This document shows, piece by piece, positions 1 through 9,770 of a DNA stretch of 64,000 nucleotides (position 1 is the first letter of the stretch; each line of letters starts with the position of its first letter). The stretch spans positions 12,915 to 76,914 of the forward strand of contig JACPZD010000009.1 of NCBI GenBank assembly GCA_016195665.1, in the 5' to 3' direction. A model generated the notes under the pieces. The model made no database searches, was not told where the DNA came from, and saw only the letters and a program-made list of their open reading frames with translations. The DNA comes from Gammaproteobacteria bacterium (GTDB lineage: Bacteria; Pseudomonadota; Gammaproteobacteria; SURF-13). Made by a program: the position numbers and the translations under genes.

Positions 1-947
1 ACGTGCTGCCCATCTATAAATTTTAGTTTGTCGGAGTAGAAGAGAATTCGCTGACCGCCCACAAAGTACATGTCTGAATAACCTTCCCGCCCAAGCTTCA
101 TCACAACACTTGCGTTGGCCTTGGAGGCGTCAATCATCTCCCGAGCAGCACTGCTAACCGCAGAGTAATCCGGTCGAGCAAGCTGAATCACACGCCTAGC
201 ATTCTTCAGAACGAAGTCAGATATTCTTTTCTCATATTCTTCGCCGAGTTCTTTTTTGAGGCCTCTTTCGGGCAGACTCAGGCTCCGCGCGAATGCACTT
301 GTAAGAGTTGTAAATTTCCAGTGCAAAAATGGCTCGTCGAAATTTTCGATATATTGGCCATATCTCTTATCTCGCTCGGCACGTGCGGTGAAAACGCGGT
401 TCGGGCTCCATGCCGATTTGTTCTTCGCGTAGATGAGTACAAAGTTTGTTGTGCTAACCACACCGGGGTTGATCGACTTATGCCCAGTCGCAGATCCCTG
501 CTTGAAAGTGACGACGGAAACCCTGTTCGGCCTCCCAAATACTTCATCGAGCATAACAATCAGATACCCGAGTTCGTTGTCGTCGATATGCACGAACAAC
601 GTACCATCTTCTGAAAGTAGTCTCCGAAGAACCTCAAGCCGATCGCGAATCAAGCCAAGCCAGATTGAGTGTTCATATCCATCGTCGTAGTGCTCAAACG
701 CTTGCTGGGTGTTGAATGGCGGATCAATATAGATGCACTTCACCTTGCCCGCGAACTCCGCCTCCAGCGCCTTCAGCGCCAGCAGGTTGTCCCCGAAGAT
801 CAGCCGGTTGTCGAAGATGTCGTTCTCCGTCACACGATGCTTGGCGTGATAAGACTGCACCGGGTCTTCCAGCAAAATGCGAGGCTCCAGCTTCGGCCGG
901 TTCTCCTTCCCGATCCAGGTGAGTTCGAGTTTTTTCTTACCACTCAT
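1..947 (-). CDS. Type III-like N6-adenine DNA methyltransferase (Mod), N-terminal part; continues past the left edge
   Basis: Open frame missing from the ORF track because it has no stop in the window. Hand translation from ATG 947: MSGKKKLELTWIGKENRPKLEPRILLED...FGDNLLALKALEAEFAGKVKCIYIDPPFNTQQ. This includes a DPPF catalytic motif and an LELTWIGK N-terminus typical of Mod-type enzymes. Confidence 0.8.
   Translation of the reverse strand, partial: MSGKKKLELTWIGKENRPKLEPRILLEDPVQSYHAKHRVTENDIFDNRLIFGDNLLALKALEAEFAGKVKCIYIDPPFNTQQAFEHYDDGYEHSIWLGLIRDRLEVLRRLLSEDGTLFVHIDDNELGYLIVMLDEVFGRPNRVSVVTFKQGSATGHKSINPGVVSTTNFVLIYAKNKSAWSPNRVFTARAERDKRYGQYIENFDEPFLHWKFTTLTSAFARSLSLPERGLKKELGEEYEKRISDFVLKNARRVIQLARPDYSAVSSAAREMIDASKANASVVMKLGREGYSDMYFVGGQRILFYSDKLKFIDGQH
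893..947. repeat. Direct repeat R1: the genuine 5' end of mod
   Basis: 912-947 matches 2504-2539 at 29/36 positions (22/23 in the core GATCC[A/T]GGTGAGTTCGAGTTTTT). 893-911 versus 2485-2503 matches about 16/20 by hand alignment. Confidence 0.75.
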
Positions 948-1897
948 GAGCGGGAGCCTTTTGGCCCCACCTTCTTCTTTGCCGCCGAATCGAAGACCTC
1001 CTGATTGATTGGCGAGCGAAGTCGGTCGTTGTTGAGGAGCTTCAGCAGTAGCTCGATGGTCTCGGGCTCGACAACGATCTTGCCGTTTTCGACTTTCAAC
1101 TCCCAGCCTTCCTCGACGCTCACTTCGGTGAGTCGTTTCAGATAGTCTGGTTGTTGGTAATAACCAGCTTTCCGTATCGAGGCCAGTTTTCTCAGATGAT
1201 GAAGATTGTCCCCGACATACTCGCGAATTGGAGCAACGTCGCTCAAGAAGGCGAGTGACTCGAACTGCGCAAGCAACTCGCTCCGGTGGTTTTTCATGCC
1301 CTCACGGAAGTTCATTGAGCTTTCAAACTCCCGCTTGTGTGCGATAAAGGTTATGCCTTCATAGGCAAAGAAATCGAAATGCGGGTCAATAAGGAAAACT
1401 TCGTCCTCGGCAATATCGGTTAGTCTGTGGTTCTGGAAGAAGAGCGCTTTCCTTGACTCCACCTTCCTGGGCTGGGTCATGGCATTGATCTTTCGCCATG
1501 CGTAGACATGCTCGCCGCCGTGTTCGAGGTGGATAACGTATGCCCAGGAATTTAGGAGGTCGCTGTACTCCTTCGCGCGTTGGTTGTCGAAACCCTGCTC
1601 GATGGCCTGCTCCACCTTCGGAAAATCAGTAGTGTCGGAGTCCAGCGTCAGTAGCACGTCGTCGGCATCCGCATTACTGAAGTCGTATTCGTCCAGATGA
1701 AAGTCGCGGCTTTGCAATTGTTGCTTGACATAGTTCCTGAAGCGTTTCTGGAGTTTCGTATCGATGTCAACGCGAAGCACCGAGTAGCTTGCCTCGCGCT
1801 GTGCCGCCTTTCGCTTAATCAGCCAGAACGTGATGGTCCACGAGCCAAAATCCATCGACTTCAGTTTCTTGAATGCTCTTGCAGGCTTGGTTGTCAT
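944..1897 (-). CDS. Soluble ~317-aa protein, candidate KwaB (DUF4868-like) of a Kiwa-type pair
   Basis: ORF 944..1966, trimmed to ATG 1897 (MTTKPARAF...), which has a GGAGAG Shine-Dalgarno and lies 13 nt after the upstream stop. Size and pairing with a ~190-aa 4-TM protein fit Kiwa. Family membership was not checked by HMM. Confidence 0.5.
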   Translation of the reverse strand: MTTKPARAFKKLKSMDFGSWTITFWLIKRKAAQREASYSVLRVDIDTKLQKRFRNYVKQQLQSRDFHLDEYDFSNADADDVLLTLDSDTTDFPKVEQAIEQGFDNQRAKEYSDLLNSWAYVIHLEHGGEHVYAWRKINAMTQPRKVESRKALFFQNHRLTDIAEDEVFLIDPHFDFFAYEGITFIAHKREFESSMNFREGMKNHRSELLAQFESLAFLSDVAPIREYVGDNLHHLRKLASIRKAGYYQQPDYLKRLTEVSVEEGWELKVENGKIVVEPETIELLLKLLNNDRLRSPINQEVFDSAAKKKVGPKGSRS

Positions 1898-1910
1898 TTG
1901 CTCTCCGAAC

Positions 1911-2486
1911 TCAAGAACAGCTTCTAGGGTGTGCAACGATGTACAGGTAGTGCGACATCCGTTCAATCACATAAGACTCGCCGATCTTGAGTGGTGCCTT
2001 TGTGATAACAAGTGCTTGGGTCTCTGTTGCACCGCGCTTAAAGGTGCAATCGATCAACATGTACCCGGCCAGAGCCAGCACCGGATTGACGAACACCGTT
2101 TGCGTTCGATATGCGACCACGAAGAGCATCGCGAGGAAAATGAAGAGGCTGAGTAACGTCTGCCAGTCTCCGAGATCGATGCGTAAGAACGAGACCATGT
2201 ACGGAATCGTGTATCCAAACATCTCCCCCGACTTGTTCGATGCCTTGGTAACCTCAACCGAAAGACCACTCTGTACGTCGCGGACCGCATGCAGAATGCC
2301 GATGCAACTGCCAATTGCAATCAACAAGAGTGCAGCAGAGAACAATGGATGCTGTGGCAGCCAGTGTAACTGCTGGGAATCGTAGTCCTTGATCACAAGG
2401 ATCAATAACAACGGGGAATAAGCACTCAGAAATAGCAGCAACGACGCCCAAGGGTGGAGCCGTAATGCTGGATCAGGTGAGGTCAT
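1911..2486 (-). CDS. 191-aa multi-pass membrane protein, candidate KwaA
   Basis: About four hydrophobic helices: WASLLLFLSAYSPLLLILVI, LFSAALLLIAIGSCIGIL, LLSLFIFLAMLFVVAY, VFVNPVLALAGYMLI. It lies immediately upstream of the KwaB-like gene. Confidence 0.5.
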   Translation of the reverse strand: MTSPDPALRLHPWASLLLFLSAYSPLLLILVIKDYDSQQLHWLPQHPLFSAALLLIAIGSCIGILHAVRDVQSGLSVEVTKASNKSGEMFGYTIPYMVSFLRIDLGDWQTLLSLFIFLAMLFVVAYRTQTVFVNPVLALAGYMLIDCTFKRGATETQALVITKAPLKIGESYVIERMSHYLYIVAHPRSCS

Positions 2487-2539
2487 ACCAGGGTCTCCTT
2501 GCTGATCCTGGTGAGTTCGAGTTTTTGTTTCTTAGTCAT
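2483..2539 (-). pseudogene. 18-codon relic of a mod 5' end (direct repeat R2), now a leader ORF ahead of the kwaA-like gene
   Basis: Encodes MTKKQKLELTRISKETLV*, compared with the real mod MSGKKKLELTWIGKENRP. Its TGA overlaps the kwaA-like ATG (TCAT at 2483-2486 on the plus strand). Confidence 0.7.
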
Positions 2540-2553
2540 CAATTTCTCGCTGC

Positions 2554-4869
2554 TTAGATACGGACGCGCGCGCGTTCGCGCGCCTGCAACTGCGCACGGA
2601 TCTCTGTATAGAGCCGCGCCTCTTCGTTTTCGCGATCGCTCATGCGGATCACCAAGGCATAGGGTTCTTCTTCCAGCGTAAACGGCGGGATGCCCCATGC
2701 ATGATCGTTGCGTGTCACGGCAACAAACAATTTTTCCGTGCGGGACTGCTTGATTGCCCATGTAGATGCCTGCACTGTCCCGTAGGCGCGCTTCTGGGCG
2801 CCGTAGGTTGTCTTGTTGCAGTTGATTTCCTTGATGCTTTCAACCTCATCGACTGTTGCCTTGTCGAAAGCGGACACGGCATCTTCAAGAGTCCCCGCTT
2901 CCACCAGCCGGAACTGGAAACGGCTGGCCTTGTAGTCGAAGCGCGTTGTCCGGACCGGGGGGCAGTGGGCGAACGCGACGGTGATTTCACGCCTGCGACT
3001 TTTCTTGCCGCTGTTGTAGAAACTCTCCGGGATCGGTACTTCATAGAAGTGATGATGCTTGTCGATGAGGGCCGATTCAGAAATTAAAATTACCTGCTCC
3101 TCGGTGGAGCGGTACAGATTGGAAACATCGACCATTCCGTAACCGACTACTTGCGCGAGTTGGTCTTCCTCACCACGGAAAAGATCATGGCTGGCGGCAG
3201 GGATCCTTCCGTTCGCAATCAGCAACGCGCGGAGCAGATTCATACTGGCATTGGGTACTTCCGTCAACAATCGAGCGGCGGCATGGGCGACATGAGGGGC
3301 CGCGAAGCTTGTGCCCGCTCTTTCAGAAAGTAAACGACCCTCAGCAAAATCTTTGTCGGTGGACAATTCTCCCAGCCACCGATCCGATATGTGTCCTCCA
3401 CGGGGATCAATGGCCTGGTTTCCGCCATACGCCACCAACTCCGGTTTGATTGCCCCTTTTATGGAACAACCGCAGCGGGTAAACGATGACGGCTGGTCTC
3501 TTTGCGCAATCGGGTTTTCCGGCAAATCGTGTGGCCAGCGCCATGCCTTGGCGCTCCGATCCCAGCGGGCAAGACTCCCAATGGTAAGCACGTTTAATGC
3601 CGGAGCTGGATCTACCAGCTTGGCTTCATCTCTGAAAAGGTAATGCGGATATTCGTTTTTCAACCACTCGATTGGTATATCCAGGAAGTTTCCGGTTGGC
3701 ACGACGAATAGTACATCTAATTCGCGCGCAAGTCGGTCGAGCGTGTACGCAAGACCACCAACTCGGCCCCCAAGGTAGGGCTTATTCAAGTTGCCGTAGG
3801 AAAGGTTGAAGACACGGCAGCCATAGTTCTCGTGGAAATATCTAACCGCTTCTTCCACGATGTTCTCGATGAAGCGCGCGTCGGATTCGGCTTTGTGATC
3901 GAGCACGCGCCCACTCAACAAGCGCAGTTGTGGAATGAACTCCTTGGCCTGGGCACAGGCTTCGACCTCCCCATAGAGTGCGATACCTGCCACGATGGTT
4001 CCGTGACCGTTATCGTCATGGGAGGCTTTGTCGGGGAGCAGGAACCCCTGAGCGTCACCCAGCGCCGGAGCAAGGAGTGGGTGTCCTTCGGCAATACCGC
4101 TATCGAGTACCGCCACCAACGGGGCATTATCTGGAGGCGTGGATTGCCTGACTTCCTGAATATCGAGCTGCATGACGCCCAACTCCAGCCCCAAGCGTGG
4201 CGGCAGGTCGGCCGTTCGGACGTCGCGATGTCTCAACAGCAATTCAGCTTGCTTCCGGAGGAGTCTCAGCCGATAGGCAACAAAGTCTTCCGCGTTGATG
4301 CGATCCCGTATTACGGCTCCCTCTTTCGCCAGCCAGGCATTGAAAGCCGACGTCATTGCCTCACGCTCATCGCGTCGCCCAAGCGGCCATAACTCCACAT
4401 CAAGGATGAAAGGTTCCTGAGCCGGTAGCCCATCACGCCTCAAGGCCCAGCCCTTACGATCTTCCGGCGTCCAGTGATCGAACGCTTCCAGTGCATAGAG
4501 GATGTTGGCGTACTTGGGTGTTTTACCATCGGCGAGTTGGCTAAGCCTGGCCTCGAATTCATCCAGTGCGGTCTTATCGGCGAAGGCAAGCGCGTAGCCG
4601 CCATCTTCTTGGCTGACCACCTCAACGCCGGGGAATGCTCGCTCAATTTGTTCCGGCGGCAGCGCGCCGACCTTCAGCTTGAAAAGCGGGTGGTCGTCAA
4701 AACCACCGATGTCTTTACCGGCCTCCTCAATTGAGACCGTAAGGCTCTTTTGGAGTTTGCGCGCATGTCCAGGCAAGTCTGCTGGCCTCGAAAAGCGGGG
4801 AGGTTGTCCGGGCCGCTTCTGTTTGATGGGTTGCTCGCGCTCAAACCTTAGATGGGGGTAGGCTTCCAT
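2554..4869 (-). CDS. S8 (subtilisin-like) serine peptidase, IetS-type
   Basis: Catalytic triad motifs VLDSGI (Asp), HGTIVAGIA (His) and GTSFAAPHVA (Ser). 771 aa. Starts 6 nt after the AAA ATPase stop. Confidence 0.8.
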   Translation of the reverse strand: MEAYPHLRFEREQPIKQKRPGQPPRFSRPADLPGHARKLQKSLTVSIEEAGKDIGGFDDHPLFKLKVGALPPEQIERAFPGVEVVSQEDGGYALAFADKTALDEFEARLSQLADGKTPKYANILYALEAFDHWTPEDRKGWALRRDGLPAQEPFILDVELWPLGRRDEREAMTSAFNAWLAKEGAVIRDRINAEDFVAYRLRLLRKQAELLLRHRDVRTADLPPRLGLELGVMQLDIQEVRQSTPPDNAPLVAVLDSGIAEGHPLLAPALGDAQGFLLPDKASHDDNGHGTIVAGIALYGEVEACAQAKEFIPQLRLLSGRVLDHKAESDARFIENIVEEAVRYFHENYGCRVFNLSYGNLNKPYLGGRVGGLAYTLDRLARELDVLFVVPTGNFLDIPIEWLKNEYPHYLFRDEAKLVDPAPALNVLTIGSLARWDRSAKAWRWPHDLPENPIAQRDQPSSFTRCGCSIKGAIKPELVAYGGNQAIDPRGGHISDRWLGELSTDKDFAEGRLLSERAGTSFAAPHVAHAAARLLTEVPNASMNLLRALLIANGRIPAASHDLFRGEEDQLAQVVGYGMVDVSNLYRSTEEQVILISESALIDKHHHFYEVPIPESFYNSGKKSRRREITVAFAHCPPVRTTRFDYKASRFQFRLVEAGTLEDAVSAFDKATVDEVESIKEINCNKTTYGAQKRAYGTVQASTWAIKQSRTEKLFVAVTRNDHAWGIPPFTLEEEPYALVIRMSDRENEEARLYTEIRAQLQARERARVRI

Positions 4870-4875
4870 TGCGCA

Positions 4876-5874
4876 TTACACCCCCGACAGTTGTCGCTTT
4901 CTGTTCAACTCACGCTGCTGAGCTTTTTCAATATGGCGAAGCTGAAGGAACTCCTGTCCCTTGAGGATCATGTCCTTGATGGCATGCCGTAACACGCGCT
5001 CCACGTCGGCATGGGACATCTCCGAGAAATATGAAAGAACCCGCTCGTCATCCAATTCAAAATCGCGACGTACGCCGCGTAACTTGATCTTCAGAAGCTG
5101 CGCAAGCTGTTCCCGCGTGGGTAGGCCGAATACCAGCACTTCCTCAAAGCGTCGCCAGATGGCGGAATCGAGCATGCCCTCGTGGTTAGTCGCCGCAATG
5201 ATGAGGCTCTTGCCCTGATAGGCGTCGAGCATTTGCAGCACAGCGTTGACCACGCGCTTGAGTTCGCCGTGTTCGCTGGCATCCGCCCTCTCTTTACCTA
5301 AAGCATCGAATTCGTCGAAAAGAGCCACCATAGGGGTGGAATCGATGAAGTCAAAGACCTTGCGCAGATTGGCGGCGGTTTCGCCGAGATAGGAGGATAC
5401 CACGCTGTCGAGGCGAATGAGTGCAAGCGGAAGGCCCAGTTCCGTGGCAATAACCTCTGCCGTCAGAGTCTTTCCGCAACCCGGCGGGCCGCAAAAAAGT
5501 ATTTTGTCAGCTGGACGTAGACCATGGCTTCTGAGTACATCGGCTCGATGGTGCTGTTCAAGGATGTCCTCGATGACCTGCTGGTTTTCATCGGCGAGAA
5601 CGACTTCTTCTAAACCGCGTGCTGGCTCGCGGAAACCAAGGAGCGGCAGGCCGCGCTCCTGATCTACAGGGATGCGCTCCGAGAGTCCTCGGGTTGCCAT
5701 GGATATGGGGCGATGGCCTCCACCATAAAGGATTTGCTCTAGGTCGTTGGCGAGCAGATGATGCTGTTTCTGCCGCTCTTCCCGGATGATGGCCTCGGAT
5801 GCCTGCCGGAAGGCGTTCGCATCTCCGGCCGATCCAGCCTTAATGATCTGTCTCAGTATCTTCCCGCTCGCCAT
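4876..5874 (-). CDS. AAA+ ATPase, IetA-type
   Basis: Walker A GPPGCGKT and Walker B ALFDEFD. 332 aa. Paired with the downstream S8 peptidase, as in the ietAS defence architecture. Confidence 0.8.
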   Translation of the reverse strand: MASGKILRQIIKAGSAGDANAFRQASEAIIREERQKQHHLLANDLEQILYGGGHRPISMATRGLSERIPVDQERGLPLLGFREPARGLEEVVLADENQQVIEDILEQHHRADVLRSHGLRPADKILFCGPPGCGKTLTAEVIATELGLPLALIRLDSVVSSYLGETAANLRKVFDFIDSTPMVALFDEFDALGKERADASEHGELKRVVNAVLQMLDAYQGKSLIIAATNHEGMLDSAIWRRFEEVLVFGLPTREQLAQLLKIKLRGVRRDFELDDERVLSYFSEMSHADVERVLRHAIKDMILKGQEFLQLRHIEKAQQRELNRKRQLSGV

Positions 5875-6332
5875 GATGTTCTCCCCAATTTTCGTGATTT
5901 TACCCTATTGACTAGCTCATTAGATGAGCCTTATGGCTTGGTTCCTCAAGTCTATAAGGTTTTGCTATCTTCAAGCGTCCTCAATTCAAATCCCTCAATC
6001 TCCTGCAACGACTTGCCCGCAATCCCCTGCAAGTCCCCATACATTCGGAACAAATTCTGGGGCAAGTCTTGCATTGCAACATTACTGGACTCAGCCTGCA
6101 CTCCACCCAGGCGATCCCACGACATCGCCGGTCGATCATTGCGTTTGTTTCTGTTTCTTGTTGTGTAACCACCGCCCCCCTATCCCCGCTGGCTTTCAAA
6201 TTTACCGAGAGCCGACTTCGCTCGGCCTACTCCGTGGCCGTGCCCGGCGCCGCACTACTTCCGCCATCCCGCGCAGCGGCGATGATATATCGTAACTGCG
6301 GATGGGTCATAAAGACAGGCCGACCTGAGTAT

Positions 6333-6767
6333 TTATATGTTTAGCGTTTTGAGGAATTGATCGGCGGTTATGATGGGGCAGATAAACTGACCAGCGAGGC
6401 TCAGCAGATCCCGATCCCCAGTAACAAGATAGGCAGCCTTGCCTGCGCTGGCAAGCTGCAGAAAGGGCACGTCGAACGGATCGCGGCAATGTGGCATTGC
6501 GGCCATTTTGGCAGGCATGCGTACCGTGGTGCAGTAGGGCAAATAGTCGGCAAGCAGTTCTTGCTGTTCTGCCCCGGAGAGTTTGAATTTCGAGTATGCA
6601 AGCGCACGTAGCAGTTCCGCCGCAGTGGCGTTTGATACCAGCGGCTGACAGCGGGCGCCTTGCCAGGCATAGCGCAATGGTGTCAGCCGCCCTTGGGCAA
6701 ACACCAGTGCAGATAGCACCAGATTGGTGTCGATCACCACGCGCGGCGCGCGCGGGGAACCGCTCAT
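6333..6767 (-). CDS. PIN-domain toxin (VapC-like)
   Basis: MSGSPRAPRVVIDTNLVLSALVF... fits a PIN N-terminal strand with an acidic residue. Its start overlaps the antitoxin stop. Confidence 0.7.
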   Translation of the reverse strand: MSGSPRAPRVVIDTNLVLSALVFAQGRLTPLRYAWQGARCQPLVSNATAAELLRALAYSKFKLSGAEQQELLADYLPYCTTVRMPAKMAAMPHCRDPFDVPFLQLASAGKAAYLVTGDRDLLSLAGQFICPIITADQFLKTLNI

Positions 6768-7021
6768 TTCTTGCGCCGGCTCTTTACAGGGGCCTGACCG
6801 GGCGCTTGCCGCGCCCATGCAACCGCGGCGTTAATGTCCTGCTCCTGCAGGTCCAGTTCAGCCAGTTTGGCGCGCACGGCATCGCCACGCTGGATGCGCA
6901 CCGGGGTCAGCACGATCTGGCCGTTACGGGTTTCCACGTCAAAATATTCTGCGGGGCCGACGTCTGCGGTCACGCTCTTGGGCAGGGTAAGCTGATTTTT
7001 TGCGGTCAATTTGGCAAGCAT
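6764..7021 (-). CDS. AbrB/MazE/SpoVT-type antitoxin
   Basis: MLAKLTAKNQLTLPKSVTADVG... fits a swapped-hairpin AbrB-like N-terminus. 85 aa, upstream of the PIN gene. Confidence 0.7.
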   Translation of the reverse strand: MLAKLTAKNQLTLPKSVTADVGPAEYFDVETRNGQIVLTPVRIQRGDAVRAKLAELDLQEQDINAAVAWARQAPGQAPVKSRRKK

Positions 7022-7041
7022 GGCAGCGCTCCAATTCGAAA

Positions 7042-7084
7042 AGTAAGGATTCCTTACTATATGCTATTGACGATAATTTGGCAA
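7042..7084 (-). promoter_or_regulatory. Sigma70-type promoter plus palindromic operator of the TA pair
   Basis: On the minus strand: TTGCCA (7084-7079), a 17-nt spacer, then TATAGT (7061-7056). The palindrome AGTAAGGA-T-TCCTTACT (7042-7058) abuts the -10 element. Confidence 0.45.
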
Positions 7085-7127
7085 CAAACGAGGGATTGTT
7101 GCCTGCACCCGCGGACCTCAGTGCGCA

Positions 7128-8108
7128 TTATCCCTGAGGCAGTTGCAAGACCAGCGACACGCGGCGATTATGCGCGCGACCTTCCGCTGTGGCGTTATCG
7201 GTGCGTGGGTGCGTGTCCGCATAACCGATGGCGCGCAACCGGCCGGCGGTGATGCCACGCACGATCAGATAGCGCGTGACGTTGGTTGCCCGCGTGCTGG
7301 ACAATTCCCAGTTCGATGCAAAGCGCAGATTTTCGATGGGGATATTATCGGTATGCCCTTCGACAGAGACCGAATAATTCTGGTTCACGAGCAGCGCAGC
7401 CAGTTCATCCAGCAGTTGCCGGCCAAGCGGCTTAAGCGTAGCGCTGCCGGGCTCGAACAGGATATTGTCGCTGATTTCGAGATTAACGCTGTCCGGATGG
7501 GCGGTCACTTCAATGCGTGTCCCGAGCGCGCTGGCCTGAATAGTTTCGAGAAAATTATTCCGTGCGGGTGCCGTCGCCGAGGCATCAGGCGGTGGTTCCT
7601 CTGTACTAGCGTTTGTCAGGTTCGATGGACGACCCTCTTCTTGCAGAACGGGTGGCGTCTCAGGTTCTGCCTGTAGCGGTGGTATCACCGGCCGCTGTGC
7701 GGTTTCCTTAGGCAGCGTGATATAACCCCGCTGCGTCGCACTGATGCCTACCATGGGCAACGAAACCTGCTCGATGATGGAAGAGACAAGCGGTTGCGCA
7801 GCAGGCGTCGCAGATGGGCGCAGACTGTGCGTCGTACTACGAGCTTGTTGGCTCACCGGGCTCGACACCGATGTGACCTTTGCATAGGCAAGCAGCAGGA
7901 CGAACAGGGCAAGCAGCAAGGTCATGATGTCCATGTAGCTGATCATCCATACTTCATCCTCGCCTGCTTGGGCCAGACTGCTTTCTGTAAGGGCAATGGC
8001 ATCGTGTGTGGCTTGCGTGTCGGTGTGACGTGCCGGTACGCGTGACAATGGAGTAGCAGACCTATGCGCCATAGGGGCGAGCGGGTGCATTCTGGACAAT
8101 TGACTCAT
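7128..8108 (-). CDS. MotB/OmpA-family stator protein
   Basis: Single TM helix (ISYMDIMTLLLALFVLLLAYA), a Pro-rich linker, and a C-terminal OmpA-like domain (VEGHTDNIPI...NWELSSTRA...NRRV). Confidence 0.75.
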   Translation of the reverse strand: MSQLSRMHPLAPMAHRSATPLSRVPARHTDTQATHDAIALTESSLAQAGEDEVWMISYMDIMTLLLALFVLLLAYAKVTSVSSPVSQQARSTTHSLRPSATPAAQPLVSSIIEQVSLPMVGISATQRGYITLPKETAQRPVIPPLQAEPETPPVLQEEGRPSNLTNASTEEPPPDASATAPARNNFLETIQASALGTRIEVTAHPDSVNLEISDNILFEPGSATLKPLGRQLLDELAALLVNQNYSVSVEGHTDNIPIENLRFASNWELSSTRATNVTRYLIVRGITAGRLRAIGYADTHPRTDNATAEGRAHNRRVSLVLQLPQG

Positions 8109-8121
8109 TACTGCGTCACCA

Positions 8122-8943
8122 TCAGGCGGCATTCATCCAGGCAAGCTTGGTAACCTGATAGGAAGCGTCCTCCTGATGAGAAAGGTAGGCATCCAACGTC
8201 TCACGAATGAGGATCGGATGTTGCCTGTCGTACAACAGCAGGATGCCTTCCTGCAGCATGTTCATGGATACCAAGCGCTGCTGAGTGCGTCGTTCCATTT
8301 TGATGGACAGTGGCTTCAGTACCAGGTTGGCAGCGAGCAGGCCGTACAATGTGGCGGCCATGGCAAAGGCCATAGTTGCACCGATCTCCTGGAGGCCACT
8401 GTGGCCAAGCCCGGACAGCATATGTACCAGACCGAACAAGGTGCCGAGCATGCCGAAGGCCGGGGCCAGCGTAGCCATCGTGCGCAGTATTTGGGCGTCG
8501 GCCTGCTCGCGCGCGCGTAACCCCGCTATGCGCCACTGCAATACCTTGGTCAGGTCCTGCAGTGGGCCCCGGTCGATCACCAGTTGTATACCACTACGCA
8601 AAAACGGATTGCTGACATTGGCCAGCTCTCTCTCGGCGGCCCGGATATTGCCGTGCCGATACCATTCGGCGACCCGCAGCAATTGTTCAATCTCGTCCCC
8701 GGCGCTCGGCTGTTCATCCGTAGCCAATTCCGGCAGGCTACGCAGCACCCGGATTACATCCGTAATCGGCCGGCTCACCACCGTCGCCGCCAGTGTGCCG
8801 CCGATGACCACGATCAGCCCCGGGATATTGAAGAACGCGCTGATATGCTCCGGTGACAGCAGTATCATGCCAAGCACCAGTACACCACCACCGAGAAGCC
8901 CGATGACGGTGGATTTTTTCATGTCTTGCAGTTTGATTCGCAT
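8122..8943 (-). CDS. MotA/TolQ/ExbB-family proton-channel protein
   Basis: 273 aa with MotA-like TM helices and the ...APAFGMLGTLFGLV... motif. Lies 13 nt upstream of the MotB-like gene. Confidence 0.75.
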   Translation of the reverse strand: MRIKLQDMKKSTVIGLLGGGVLVLGMILLSPEHISAFFNIPGLIVVIGGTLAATVVSRPITDVIRVLRSLPELATDEQPSAGDEIEQLLRVAEWYRHGNIRAAERELANVSNPFLRSGIQLVIDRGPLQDLTKVLQWRIAGLRAREQADAQILRTMATLAPAFGMLGTLFGLVHMLSGLGHSGLQEIGATMAFAMAATLYGLLAANLVLKPLSIKMERRTQQRLVSMNMLQEGILLLYDRQHPILIRETLDAYLSHQEDASYQVTKLAWMNAA

Positions 8944-9220
8944 TACACCACCCGATATTTGCCTATTGTGAGTCCGTTGCTTCGAGACTCAAGCAATTAT
9001 CGTTCCCGATATCACGACGGGAGGGCGATACTCTTTAACTTATTGTTTTACTAGGCAAGTAAAGGGACAACTGGACGGAAAGCCAAGACGCAGAGAAGTG
9101 GCTGGGTACAGTAGGGCAAGATGTTGCCGCCCCTTTTCCTGTGCGCGCCGCAAAGCGGCAATTTATTACTAGGCCTAACAGGTTGTTAAAAAAGTCCATC
9201 CATGGTCTTTTTCGACTCAT

Positions 9221-9429: not shown

Positions 9430-9770
9430 TAAAAACGAGCGCTTTTGCTGGCGCGGGAGATGGACTCGGTTTGACGGGCGGCTACTCCAGCGCATCAATC
9501 GTCAACTATCCGAGCAGCCGGGGCACTTCTTTTGAAAAGTATAGACATACGTAGCGCAACTACGACTTCAGCCCCCAAATAAACTTACCTGTCGTTTGAA
9601 ATAGTGATAAATATCGTAGCATGGCTACGACTGAAAGAACCAAGCTATTGCGCCGGACTGTTACCGCATAGGATGGGCGATGCGATCGCCGGAGCACCGG
9701 CCCAGCACGCACCCCGCGTGAAGCATTTGACTTGCGTTCTCGATGTGTATAAAATTTTATACAAAGTGAA

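Follow-up and report, generated by a model that had tools for sequence, protein, structure and literature searches.

The Kiwa defence system, made up of KwaA and KwaB, was reportedly described by Doron and others in 2018. Accessory genes and mosaic structure are familiar in restriction-modification (R-M) systems: the PrrC anticodon nuclease is embedded in the type Ic EcoprrI locus, and type III mod alleles are mosaics whose recognition domain is shuffled between conserved ends, as in modA of Haemophilus and Neisseria and in Helicobacter. Homology-facilitated illegitimate recombination, in which one-sided homology is combined with an illegitimate joint, occurs during natural transformation in Acinetobacter, Pseudomonas stutzeri and pneumococcus. 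The stretch analysed here, called the window, comprises 64,000 nt (64 kb) of contig JACPZD010000009.1 (assembly GCA_016195665.1) of a gammaproteobacterium, and carries on its minus strand, in whose sense gene order is given throughout, ietA, ietS, an 18-codon open reading frame (ORF), kwaA, kwaB and a type III mod gene. The explanation that best accounts for this arrangement, and which is considered probable, is that a unit composed of a mod relic, kwaA, kwaB and mod (mod'-kwaAB-mod) recombined within the relic into an ietAS-mod-res locus, and that the relic, the present 18-codon ORF, is now the start region of kwaA.

Partial counterparts of this arrangement have been documented. In E. coli, type III R-M and ietAS are listed by Wu et al. 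(bioRxiv 10.1101/2022.08.21.504612) as a co-localising pair; by the same account ietAS and Kiwa co-occur there without co-localising. The window has all three systems, in one packed string with a joining scar. Auxiliary effectors are embedded in BREX loci (PMC12839542). With such R-M- or BREX-embedded defence genes the locus shares accessory genes inside a methylation-based operon, which are likely co-expressed, while it differs in its type III host, the slot directly before mod, the 4-nt overlaps and the 5' relics. For Kiwa itself, the part of the structural paper considered here reports no linkage to type III R-M (Zhang et al., PMC11785009). The pair in the window resembles Kiwa in its small membrane protein KwaA, with four hydrophobic segments (residues 12-35, 46-71, 105-133 and 131-149), followed directly by a DUF4868 KwaB encoded by an adjacent, co-oriented gene after a gap of 13 nt; Pfam PF28043 is precomputed for a protein identical to KwaA. 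It differs in that the pair is not free-standing, the kwaB stop overlaps the type III mod start, and a mod-derived leader precedes kwaA.

The neighbouring systems are equally recognisable. An AAA+ IetA is followed by the S8 protease IetS, and Mod is an N6/N4 methyltransferase whose partner Res, a helicase-type ATPase, lies beyond the window edge: the Logan contig L025 (related loci are numbered here with the prefix L) completes mod (575 aa) and continues with res (892 aa; Pfam ResIII E=1.8e-20) through a 4-nt overlap. L025 and a second Logan contig, L026, were assembled independently and have identical sequence and the same arrangement. PADLOC and Pfam agree with the identities (Kiwa pair, mod, S8 protease) that had been proposed from the letters in a first-pass annotation of this DNA. 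The features on which the argument depends are as follows.

4876-5874, minus strand: ietA (AAA+ ATPase), first gene of the string; PADLOC IetA E=5.5e-102, Pfam AAA.
2554-4869, minus strand: ietS (S8 subtilase); PADLOC IetS E=2.1e-257, Pfam Peptidase_S8.
2483-2539, minus strand: mod 5' relic, left repeat copy, the 18-codon ORF MTKKQKLELTRISKETLV followed by a stop; 40/51 nt against 897-947.
2495-2500, minus strand: AAGGAG within the relic (former Lys-Glu codons of mod), putative Shine-Dalgarno of kwaA; by reading of the sequence.
1911-2486, minus strand: kwaA (Kiwa membrane protein); PADLOC KwaA PDLC00215 E=3e-56.
944-1897, minus strand: kwaB (Kiwa, DUF4868); PADLOC KwaB E=1.1e-139 over the full length, Pfam PF16162 E=2.9e-45.
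897-947, minus strand: right repeat copy, the 5' end of the functional mod; 40/51 nt against 2489-2539.
1-947, minus strand: type III mod, N-terminal 315 codons, cut by the window edge; PADLOC MTase_III E=9.3e-86, Pfam N6_N4_Mtase PF01555.

The two copies of the repeat match ungapped and in register. The next-best placement of the 51-mer, over both strands of the whole window, reaches 29/51, and the flanks of the repeat are at background (10/53 and 14/53 matches); a similarity above background, on which the first-pass annotation had made its idea depend, is thus present. In a de novo repeat search the pair 899-947 and 2491-2539 ranked first among the direct-repeat families (49 nt, 80%, spacing 1592). 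Only kwaA and kwaB lie between the copies. The mod start at 947 reads MSGKKKLELTWIGKENRP, and both copies share with the mod of the related locus L027 an identical 17-nt core, AAAAACTCGAACTCACC. The earlier hand alignment was reproduced for 912-947 against 2504-2539 (29/36) and for its 23-nt core (22/23), but its figure of about 16/20 for 893-911 against 2485-2503 became 11/19 on recount.

Known mobile elements do not describe what lies between the repeats. The repeat search found no inverted repeats at either cassette boundary, and no integrase-like ORF is present among the genes of window positions 1-9000. The element is not an integron cassette, having neither an attC-type inverted repeat nor an integrase nearby; it is not an att-flanked island, as its repeats are only 78-80% identical and the right copy is of another lineage than the left; and it is not a transposon or insertion sequence, which would have a transposase, inverted repeats at its termini and a short duplicated target. 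With tRNA/tmRNA att islands it has in common a defined site and direct repeats of the target end, and with integrons promoterless cassettes read from upstream, and it is set apart from both because it repeats a 5' end, at about 80% identity, with no integrase and no attC-like inverted repeats.

The origin of the left copy is indicated by the closest relative of IetS. In L027 (IetS 91% and IetA 93% aa identity) the order is ietA-ietS-mod-res with no cargo. The 312 nt up to the relic start, which cover the ietS 3' end and the spacer, are 93% identical between the window and L027, and the L027 mod start, ATGACTAAGAAACAAAAACTCGAACTCACC, equals relic nt 1-30 (2539-2510) at 30/30 positions. Over relic nt 31-53 (2509-2487) the match to the L027 mod is only 14/23, a drop against the upstream stretch and nt 1-30 with a Fisher p of ~2e-7. 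This pattern points to the mini-ORF as a former ietS-linked mod start with an internal breakpoint, and the mini-ORF (2539 to 2483) is, judged by its sequence, a non-functional relic of a type III mod start. The possibility that L027 is instead a deletion derivative of a window-like locus was rejected: the L027 mod start differs from that of the functional window mod, and window mod nt 1-75 contain no L027-type variant.

Other relatives of ietS show the same site in different states. In L035, ietS is followed directly by mod(-res). L030 has ietS, then a mod relic (MTKKQMLELTWIGKE and onwards, with homology stopping after nt 46), then an AIPR/AbiU-like gene and, overlapping the stop of the latter with its ATG, an intact mod; L028 has retained the relic of L030 and an AIPR stub and has lost the remainder. 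The first-pass annotation had predicted that its idea would be supported by an S8-protease gene directly before mod, which is seen in L027 and L035, or by other cargo between the same repeats, as L030 has with the AIPR/AbiU-like gene between its mod relic and its intact mod. With these three loci, its proposal that the 18-codon ORF is a copy of the mod 5' end marking cassette exchange at a recurrent site stands.

The second half of the relic belongs with kwaA. Close KwaA relatives (84-95% aa) all carry a mod-like leader that ends at one joint, where CCGGCT in the relatives, or CCTGGT in the window, is followed by ATGA, the corresponding sequence in mod being AACCGGCCG. The relic/kwaA junction was seen in L043, L050, L056, L078 and L121-L126. 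Upstream of relic and kwaA stands Abi_C in L043 and L123-L125, where the relic ends with NNRLQSLELTWIDKVNRL and a stop; GMT-wHTH in L045, L048, L050, L056, L078 and L122, with decayed relic forms in all of these except L050; and ThsB-TIR genes in L126, with the relic MANHKTSLELTWIGKGNLL and a stop. The relic of L050-53 reads MTGDNKNIELTWIKWMDRL and a stop, and L121 has the relic 3' end only. When the window was compared with L043, L048 and L051 by blastn, the alignment began inside the relic and ran unbroken through kwaA and kwaB, which are together 87-90% identical in nucleotides to those of L043, L045, L048 and L051 (kwaA alone 87-89%). From this it follows that the relic/kwaA joint was inherited from one old event, and from its recurrence behind Abi_C, GMT-wHTH and ThsB-TIR, that mod'-kwaAB-mod is an inherited unit. 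The bracketed unit is therefore not peculiar to this genome.

Fine features of the relic agree with two sources. In L043, L050 and L126 the relic is 19 codons long and places 7 residues ahead of the (L/I)ELTW motif; the window relic has 18 codons with 6 residues ahead of it, like the L027 mod, and in its 3' half it has the derived ATCAGCA and CCTG in common with the L078 relic. The simplest reading of the left copy would be a chimera, with nt 1-30 from the recipient ietS-linked mod and nt 31-53 from the kwaA-borne relic. The mod-like leader is absent from 24 genome loci with KwaB at 55-65% identity, where a helicase or RhuM gene ends in an overlap with kwaA, and these loci rule out conservation of the mini-ORF before all kwaA genes. 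Plasmid-borne relatives were also considered and set aside, the KwaB homologues in PLSDB being at most 28% identical.

The right copy is of Kiwa lineage. The 4-nt overlap of kwaB and mod is found as well in L007, L016, L043, L045, L048 and L051, and on this comparison is read as ancestral to the Kiwa-mod module. Over mod nt 1-57 the window agrees at 91% with the Kiwa-linked mods of L045 and L048, against 82% with L027. At informative sites, defined as the positions where Kiwa-linked mods differ from L027, mod nt 1-75 are of Kiwa type at 8 of 8 and of L027 type at none, so the imported block extends at least 75 nt into mod, past the 51-nt repeat. Both repeats had been taken at first for a duplication of the recipient's own start; this did not hold, since the left copy is chimeric and the right copy is Kiwa-lineage at all 8 sites over nt 1-75. 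The whole mod 5' part had at first seemed plainly of donor type (identity to L027 76%, to Kiwa-linked loci 86-88%), which proved an artefact of unequal spans: on finer comparison mod nt 20-230 are ~87% identical to both L027 and Kiwa-linked mods, and only nt 1-75 are clearly Kiwa-type.

The Mod protein, assembled from window 1-947 and L025 2184-3911, is itself a mosaic. For the central recognition domain (~aa 130-400), similarity is confined to the Methylomonas locus L007 (55-94% in 40-aa windows), and the N- and C-terminal parts resemble other loci. As in the mosaic mod alleles mentioned above, conserved mod ends would act as recombination substrates, with the difference that here whole defence genes before mod are exchanged too.

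From these comparisons, which largely establish the historical part of the explanation, the following sequence of events can be proposed. The ancestral state beside ietS would have been ietA-ietS-mod-res, as in L027, while a separate Kiwa clade would long have been fused to type III R-M as kwaA-kwaB-mod-res. In one sub-clade of the latter, an older recombination would have left ~52 nt of a displaced mod start directly ahead of kwaA, and the resulting mod'-kwaA-kwaB-mod unit would later have recombined into the ietAS-mod-res locus. The left crossover would fall within the relic, at the conserved patch AAAAACTCGAACTCACC or immediately 5' of it, and the right crossover somewhere in mod past nt 75. 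More generally, the conserved mod 5' patch could act as a short homology arm that moves pre-mod cargo between type III R-M loci; a first stub, once formed, would give a second homologous arm, and the event in the window would have used the relic in this way.

Homology-facilitated illegitimate recombination would yield foreign cargo on a mod/res anchor and a truncated piece of the recipient at the other joint. It may have played a part here, since the anatomy, with 5' relics of varying length (46, 52, 117 and ~160 nt), would fit it; the microhomology of the old joint is no longer readable, and the event in the window used a second arm. In L101, the joint falls at the short peptide RV that is shared by mod (AKRRV) and DUF2130 (..IERVMG), a possible microhomology.

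Several points weigh against this history. L027 is, on sequence identity, only a ~90% proxy for the true recipient, and the identities that place the left crossover rest on 53 nt. At mod nt 94-260 the informative sites are mixed, with ~10 of Kiwa type and ~8 of L027 type, and all relatives diverge from about mod nt 230, because the recognition domain begins there, so that the right limit of the imported block is not fixed. The founding relic/kwaA event appears too old to reconstruct and may have been an illegitimate joint with one-sided homology. Relics also decay strongly in the GMT-wHTH context (L045, L048), and any role of the relic needs no fixed sequence.

The model offered in the first-pass annotation, in which a kwaAB cassette, for instance as a circular intermediate, was inserted in the mod start by one crossover that duplicated the recipient 5' end, is unlikely. 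It would fit with the presence of exactly kwaA and kwaB between the repeats, the identity of the 17-nt core AAAAACTCGAACTCACC in both copies and the L027 mod, a left copy of recipient type in nt 1-30 with a right copy of donor type in nt 1-20, and the about equal similarity of mod nt 20-230 to L027 and Kiwa-linked mods. However, the right copy is Kiwa-type and not L027-type at sites 42, 45, 69 and 73, which lie shortly 3' of the core, the relic/kwaA junction is older than the window lineage and stands behind three other neighbours, the repeat copies are only 78-80% identical, and neither an integrase gene nor inverted repeats at the cassette ends accompany them. A Campbell-type crossover in the 17-nt core, by which both repeats would be hybrid, is likewise improbable from sites 42-73, as far as L027, a 90% proxy, allows the comparison.

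On the recombination of a stub-bearing Kiwa unit into the ietAS locus, then, the scar is a base-level record of defence-operon assembly, in which the Kiwa pair joined the ietAS-type III R-M locus through its stub. The idea of a hotspot scar with which the annotation began was largely right, and was wrong on the duplication of the recipient start and on rarity. The locus is a well-documented variant of defence-island mosaicism that follows known mosaic evolution, with no new mechanism.

As to its present role, we infer that the relic is probably the translation start region of kwaA. It would keep the old mod initiation site, with a short ORF that stops on the kwaA ATG, and a perfect AAGGAG at 2500-2495, 8 nt before that ATG, is the probable kwaA Shine-Dalgarno. 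Every relic-bearing locus has a frame that stops at the kwaA ATGA, with a G-rich stretch 7-10 nt upstream of it. Both overlaps reported at first are present, the relic TGA overlapping the kwaA ATG (TCAT at 2483-2486) and the kwaB TGA overlapping the mod ATG (TCAT at 944-947). The coupling through ATGA is thus real; it is not specific to this site, and kwaA genes and cargo/mod junctions show it generally. One transcript from upstream of ietA probably carries all six genes, because no promoter or terminator appears between ietS and kwaA and the genes are separated by at most 14 nt (gaps of 6, 14 and 13 nt) or overlap by 4 nt (three ATGA overlaps, that of mod and res being on L025).

Candidates for a regulatory element in the ietS-kwaA spacer were searched for and rejected: in the consensus scan nothing there resembled a promoter or terminator, the region folds as RNA no better than shuffled sequence (z=-0.35), and Rfam gave no match at E<=1 over window 1-7000. 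GGAUCAG (window 2502-2508, minus strand) can pair with CUGAUCC in kwaA codons 4-6 (2470-2476), in a stem that would enclose AAGGAG and the kwaA start; both heptamers are also present in L078.

A different reading is that the mod-like leader was selected as a working element, either as a translated upstream ORF that couples kwaA translation to the preceding gene or as a duplicated cis-regulatory site, shared with mod, that co-regulates Kiwa and the methylase; this is improbable. Its merit is that the frame to the kwaA ATGA and the G-rich stretch are kept at every relic-bearing locus and that conservation among the window, L043, L126 and L050 is highest in the core CTCGAACTCACCTGGAT. The Abi_C genes of L123 (777-1679), L124 (1191-2108) and L125 (1056-1958) have moreover lost their own stop and run in frame through the relic to the TGA that overlaps kwaA, giving 300-305 aa instead of the 281 aa in L043. 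In L043, the relic (7947-8003) and the locus's own mod start (9540-9596), 1.5 kb apart, both have the rare LELTWIDK (Asp for Gly, ATT for Ile), hinting at gene conversion between these copies.

The relics vary, on the other hand, far more than the adjoining kwaA: that of the window matches L121, whose KwaA is 95% identical in aa, at 11/18 nt, and those of L045 and L048 have a ~10-nt deletion and are barely recognisable. The fast turnover of the relic beside a slow kwaA suggests repeated replacement by recombination or gene conversion. In the LELTWIGKE motif of the window relic, Trp and Gly have become Arg and Ser; both are kept in all intact Mod starts seen here, save for Gly to Asp in L043 and L119. 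An open frame across 18 codons has a chance expectation of ~40%, distant kwaA genes with no relic couple to whichever gene precedes, and the fold and Rfam results given above are empty. From these alignments the relic is taken as not conserved as a peptide, and the 18-codon leader ORF proposed earlier accordingly finds no conservation across the relic-bearing loci. That chance similarity or an assembly artefact explains the repeat is extremely improbable: a repeat of 51 nt is short, and it comes from what is probably a metagenome assembly, but the relic and the L027 mod start agree at 30/30 with matching upstream sequence, 40/51 stands against 29/51 elsewhere, L025 and L026 are identical independent assemblies, and homologous relic/kwaA junctions recur across many unrelated metagenomes.

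The wider occurrence of this arrangement was surveyed in 62 dereplicated loci that encode a KwaB relative and extend beyond the end of kwaB. In 44 of the 62, a type III mod stands immediately after kwaB, and in 2 there is extra cargo between kwaB and mod (an AIPR or Fic gene). Kiwa within a type III R-M operon, which had seemed unheard of, is therefore common in this Kiwa clade. A DrmD-like SNF2 helicase (PADLOC DrmD E=1.4e-211) is upstream in nearly all kwaAB-, ietAS- and AIPR-linked mod-res loci (many of L001-L120; for example L043 473-3424), and the window has none. No DrmA, DrmB or DrmC was found among the genes examined in the related loci, where the partners of the helicase are type III Mod and Res. 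Helicase, Mod and Res together have the look of a conserved frame that encloses variable defence cargo. The locus is not DISARM class 1, which combines DrmD with DrmA, DrmB, DrmC and DrmMI, the DrmD-like helicase being confined to related loci.

The stretch from helicase to mod is variable and holds established or candidate defence genes, namely IetAS, PDC-S06 with an AbiJ-like gene, PDC-M30A/B, AIPR/AbiU, PDC-S32, KwaAB, MntA/HepT or Fic, and RhuM or DUF1016 is sometimes found between mod and res. Stubs of the mod 5' end measure 46 nt in L030 and L028 (before AIPR), 52 nt in the Kiwa sub-clade, 117 nt in L022 and L101, and ~160 nt in L057; that of L057 has 53 codons and precedes a MntA/HepT pair, that of L022 has 39 codons, and that of L101, also of 39 codons, is fused to a DUF2130 3' end. 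Stubs of the AIPR 5' end occur in L005/L040 and L041, and of the DUF2130 5' end in L027, L048, L056, L078 and L111. The stubs would be 5' ends because, in packed operons, an insertion that leaves the upstream gene intact cuts the next one, and such a cut would be tolerated only where the incoming DNA carries its own copy. AIPR relatives were considered as a second relic-carrying cargo family and discarded, as only L030 and L028 have the relic and the others are helicase-AIPR-mod-res with none.

The position directly before a type III mod is thus a recurrent slot for many defence genes, and exchanges there leave 5' gene stubs that would then serve as leaders of the newcomer. It may be, though this is doubtful, that the widespread trio of helicase, Mod and Res forms a recombinase-free cassette platform, with the ~50-nt ultra-conserved mod start (M..KLELTWIGKE) as a portable left handle and with a partnership between Kiwa and type III R-M. 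Cargo (Kiwa, AIPR/AbiU, IetAS, MntA/HepT, Fic, PDC-M30, PDC-S06) would gather in the slot before mod and be swapped between loci by homologous recombination, the displaced mod copy being reused as leader ORF and Shine-Dalgarno for the cargo. If the mod start is truly a homology handle, defence cargo can spread among restriction operons with no dedicated recombinase. If the platform exists, the tight coupling of kwaB and mod would also reflect a working Kiwa/type III partnership beyond co-transfer; as the kwaB/mod overlap is kept in dozens of lineages, such a functional link is open to testing.

The combination ietA-ietS-kwaA-kwaB-mod-res is found also in at least one distant lineage (IetS 45% aa); the loci concerned are L005/L040, L063, L070 and L073-L075. 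In L005/L040 the stub that separates ietS from kwaA derives from the 5' end of AIPR and not of mod, and L073-L075 have the same AIPR-stub spacer before kwaA on contigs that stop short of ietAS. L063 has ietS-kwaA-kwaB-mod (IetS 60% aa) with no visible stub. These gene orders suggest more than one assembly of ietAS-kwaAB-mod-res. Tandem Kiwa cassettes were apparent in L102 (OEOF01000572.1) and were discarded: the contig holds adapter sequence (translations VSYTHLDVYKRQ, CIRDR and LILSLIHISQPE, at ~1830-2600), so that the apparent tandem Kiwa-mod is a chimeric assembly.

Upstream of the string, one further relic was identified.

5952-6044, minus strand: DUF2130 3' relic (ending MYGDLQGIAGKSLQEIEGFELRTLEDSKTL and a stop), upstream of ietA; blastn, 59 nt at 93% to the end of the L043 gene, and 85% to L029.

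This stub comprises the last ~30 codons of a gene that is intact in L029 and L043, and forms the left boundary of the mosaic island. A PIN-domain protein (PF13470, E=7e-19), encoded at 6333-7021 on the minus strand where the defence string borders on MotA/MotB-like genes (7128-8943), is overlapped by a small upstream ORF of 85 aa; the two are probably a toxin-antitoxin pair. Outside the window on its left, L025 has a pair of direct repeats of 80 nt and 92.5% identity (7167-7246 and 7772-7851), which flank the region after res and a dCMP-deaminase-like gene.

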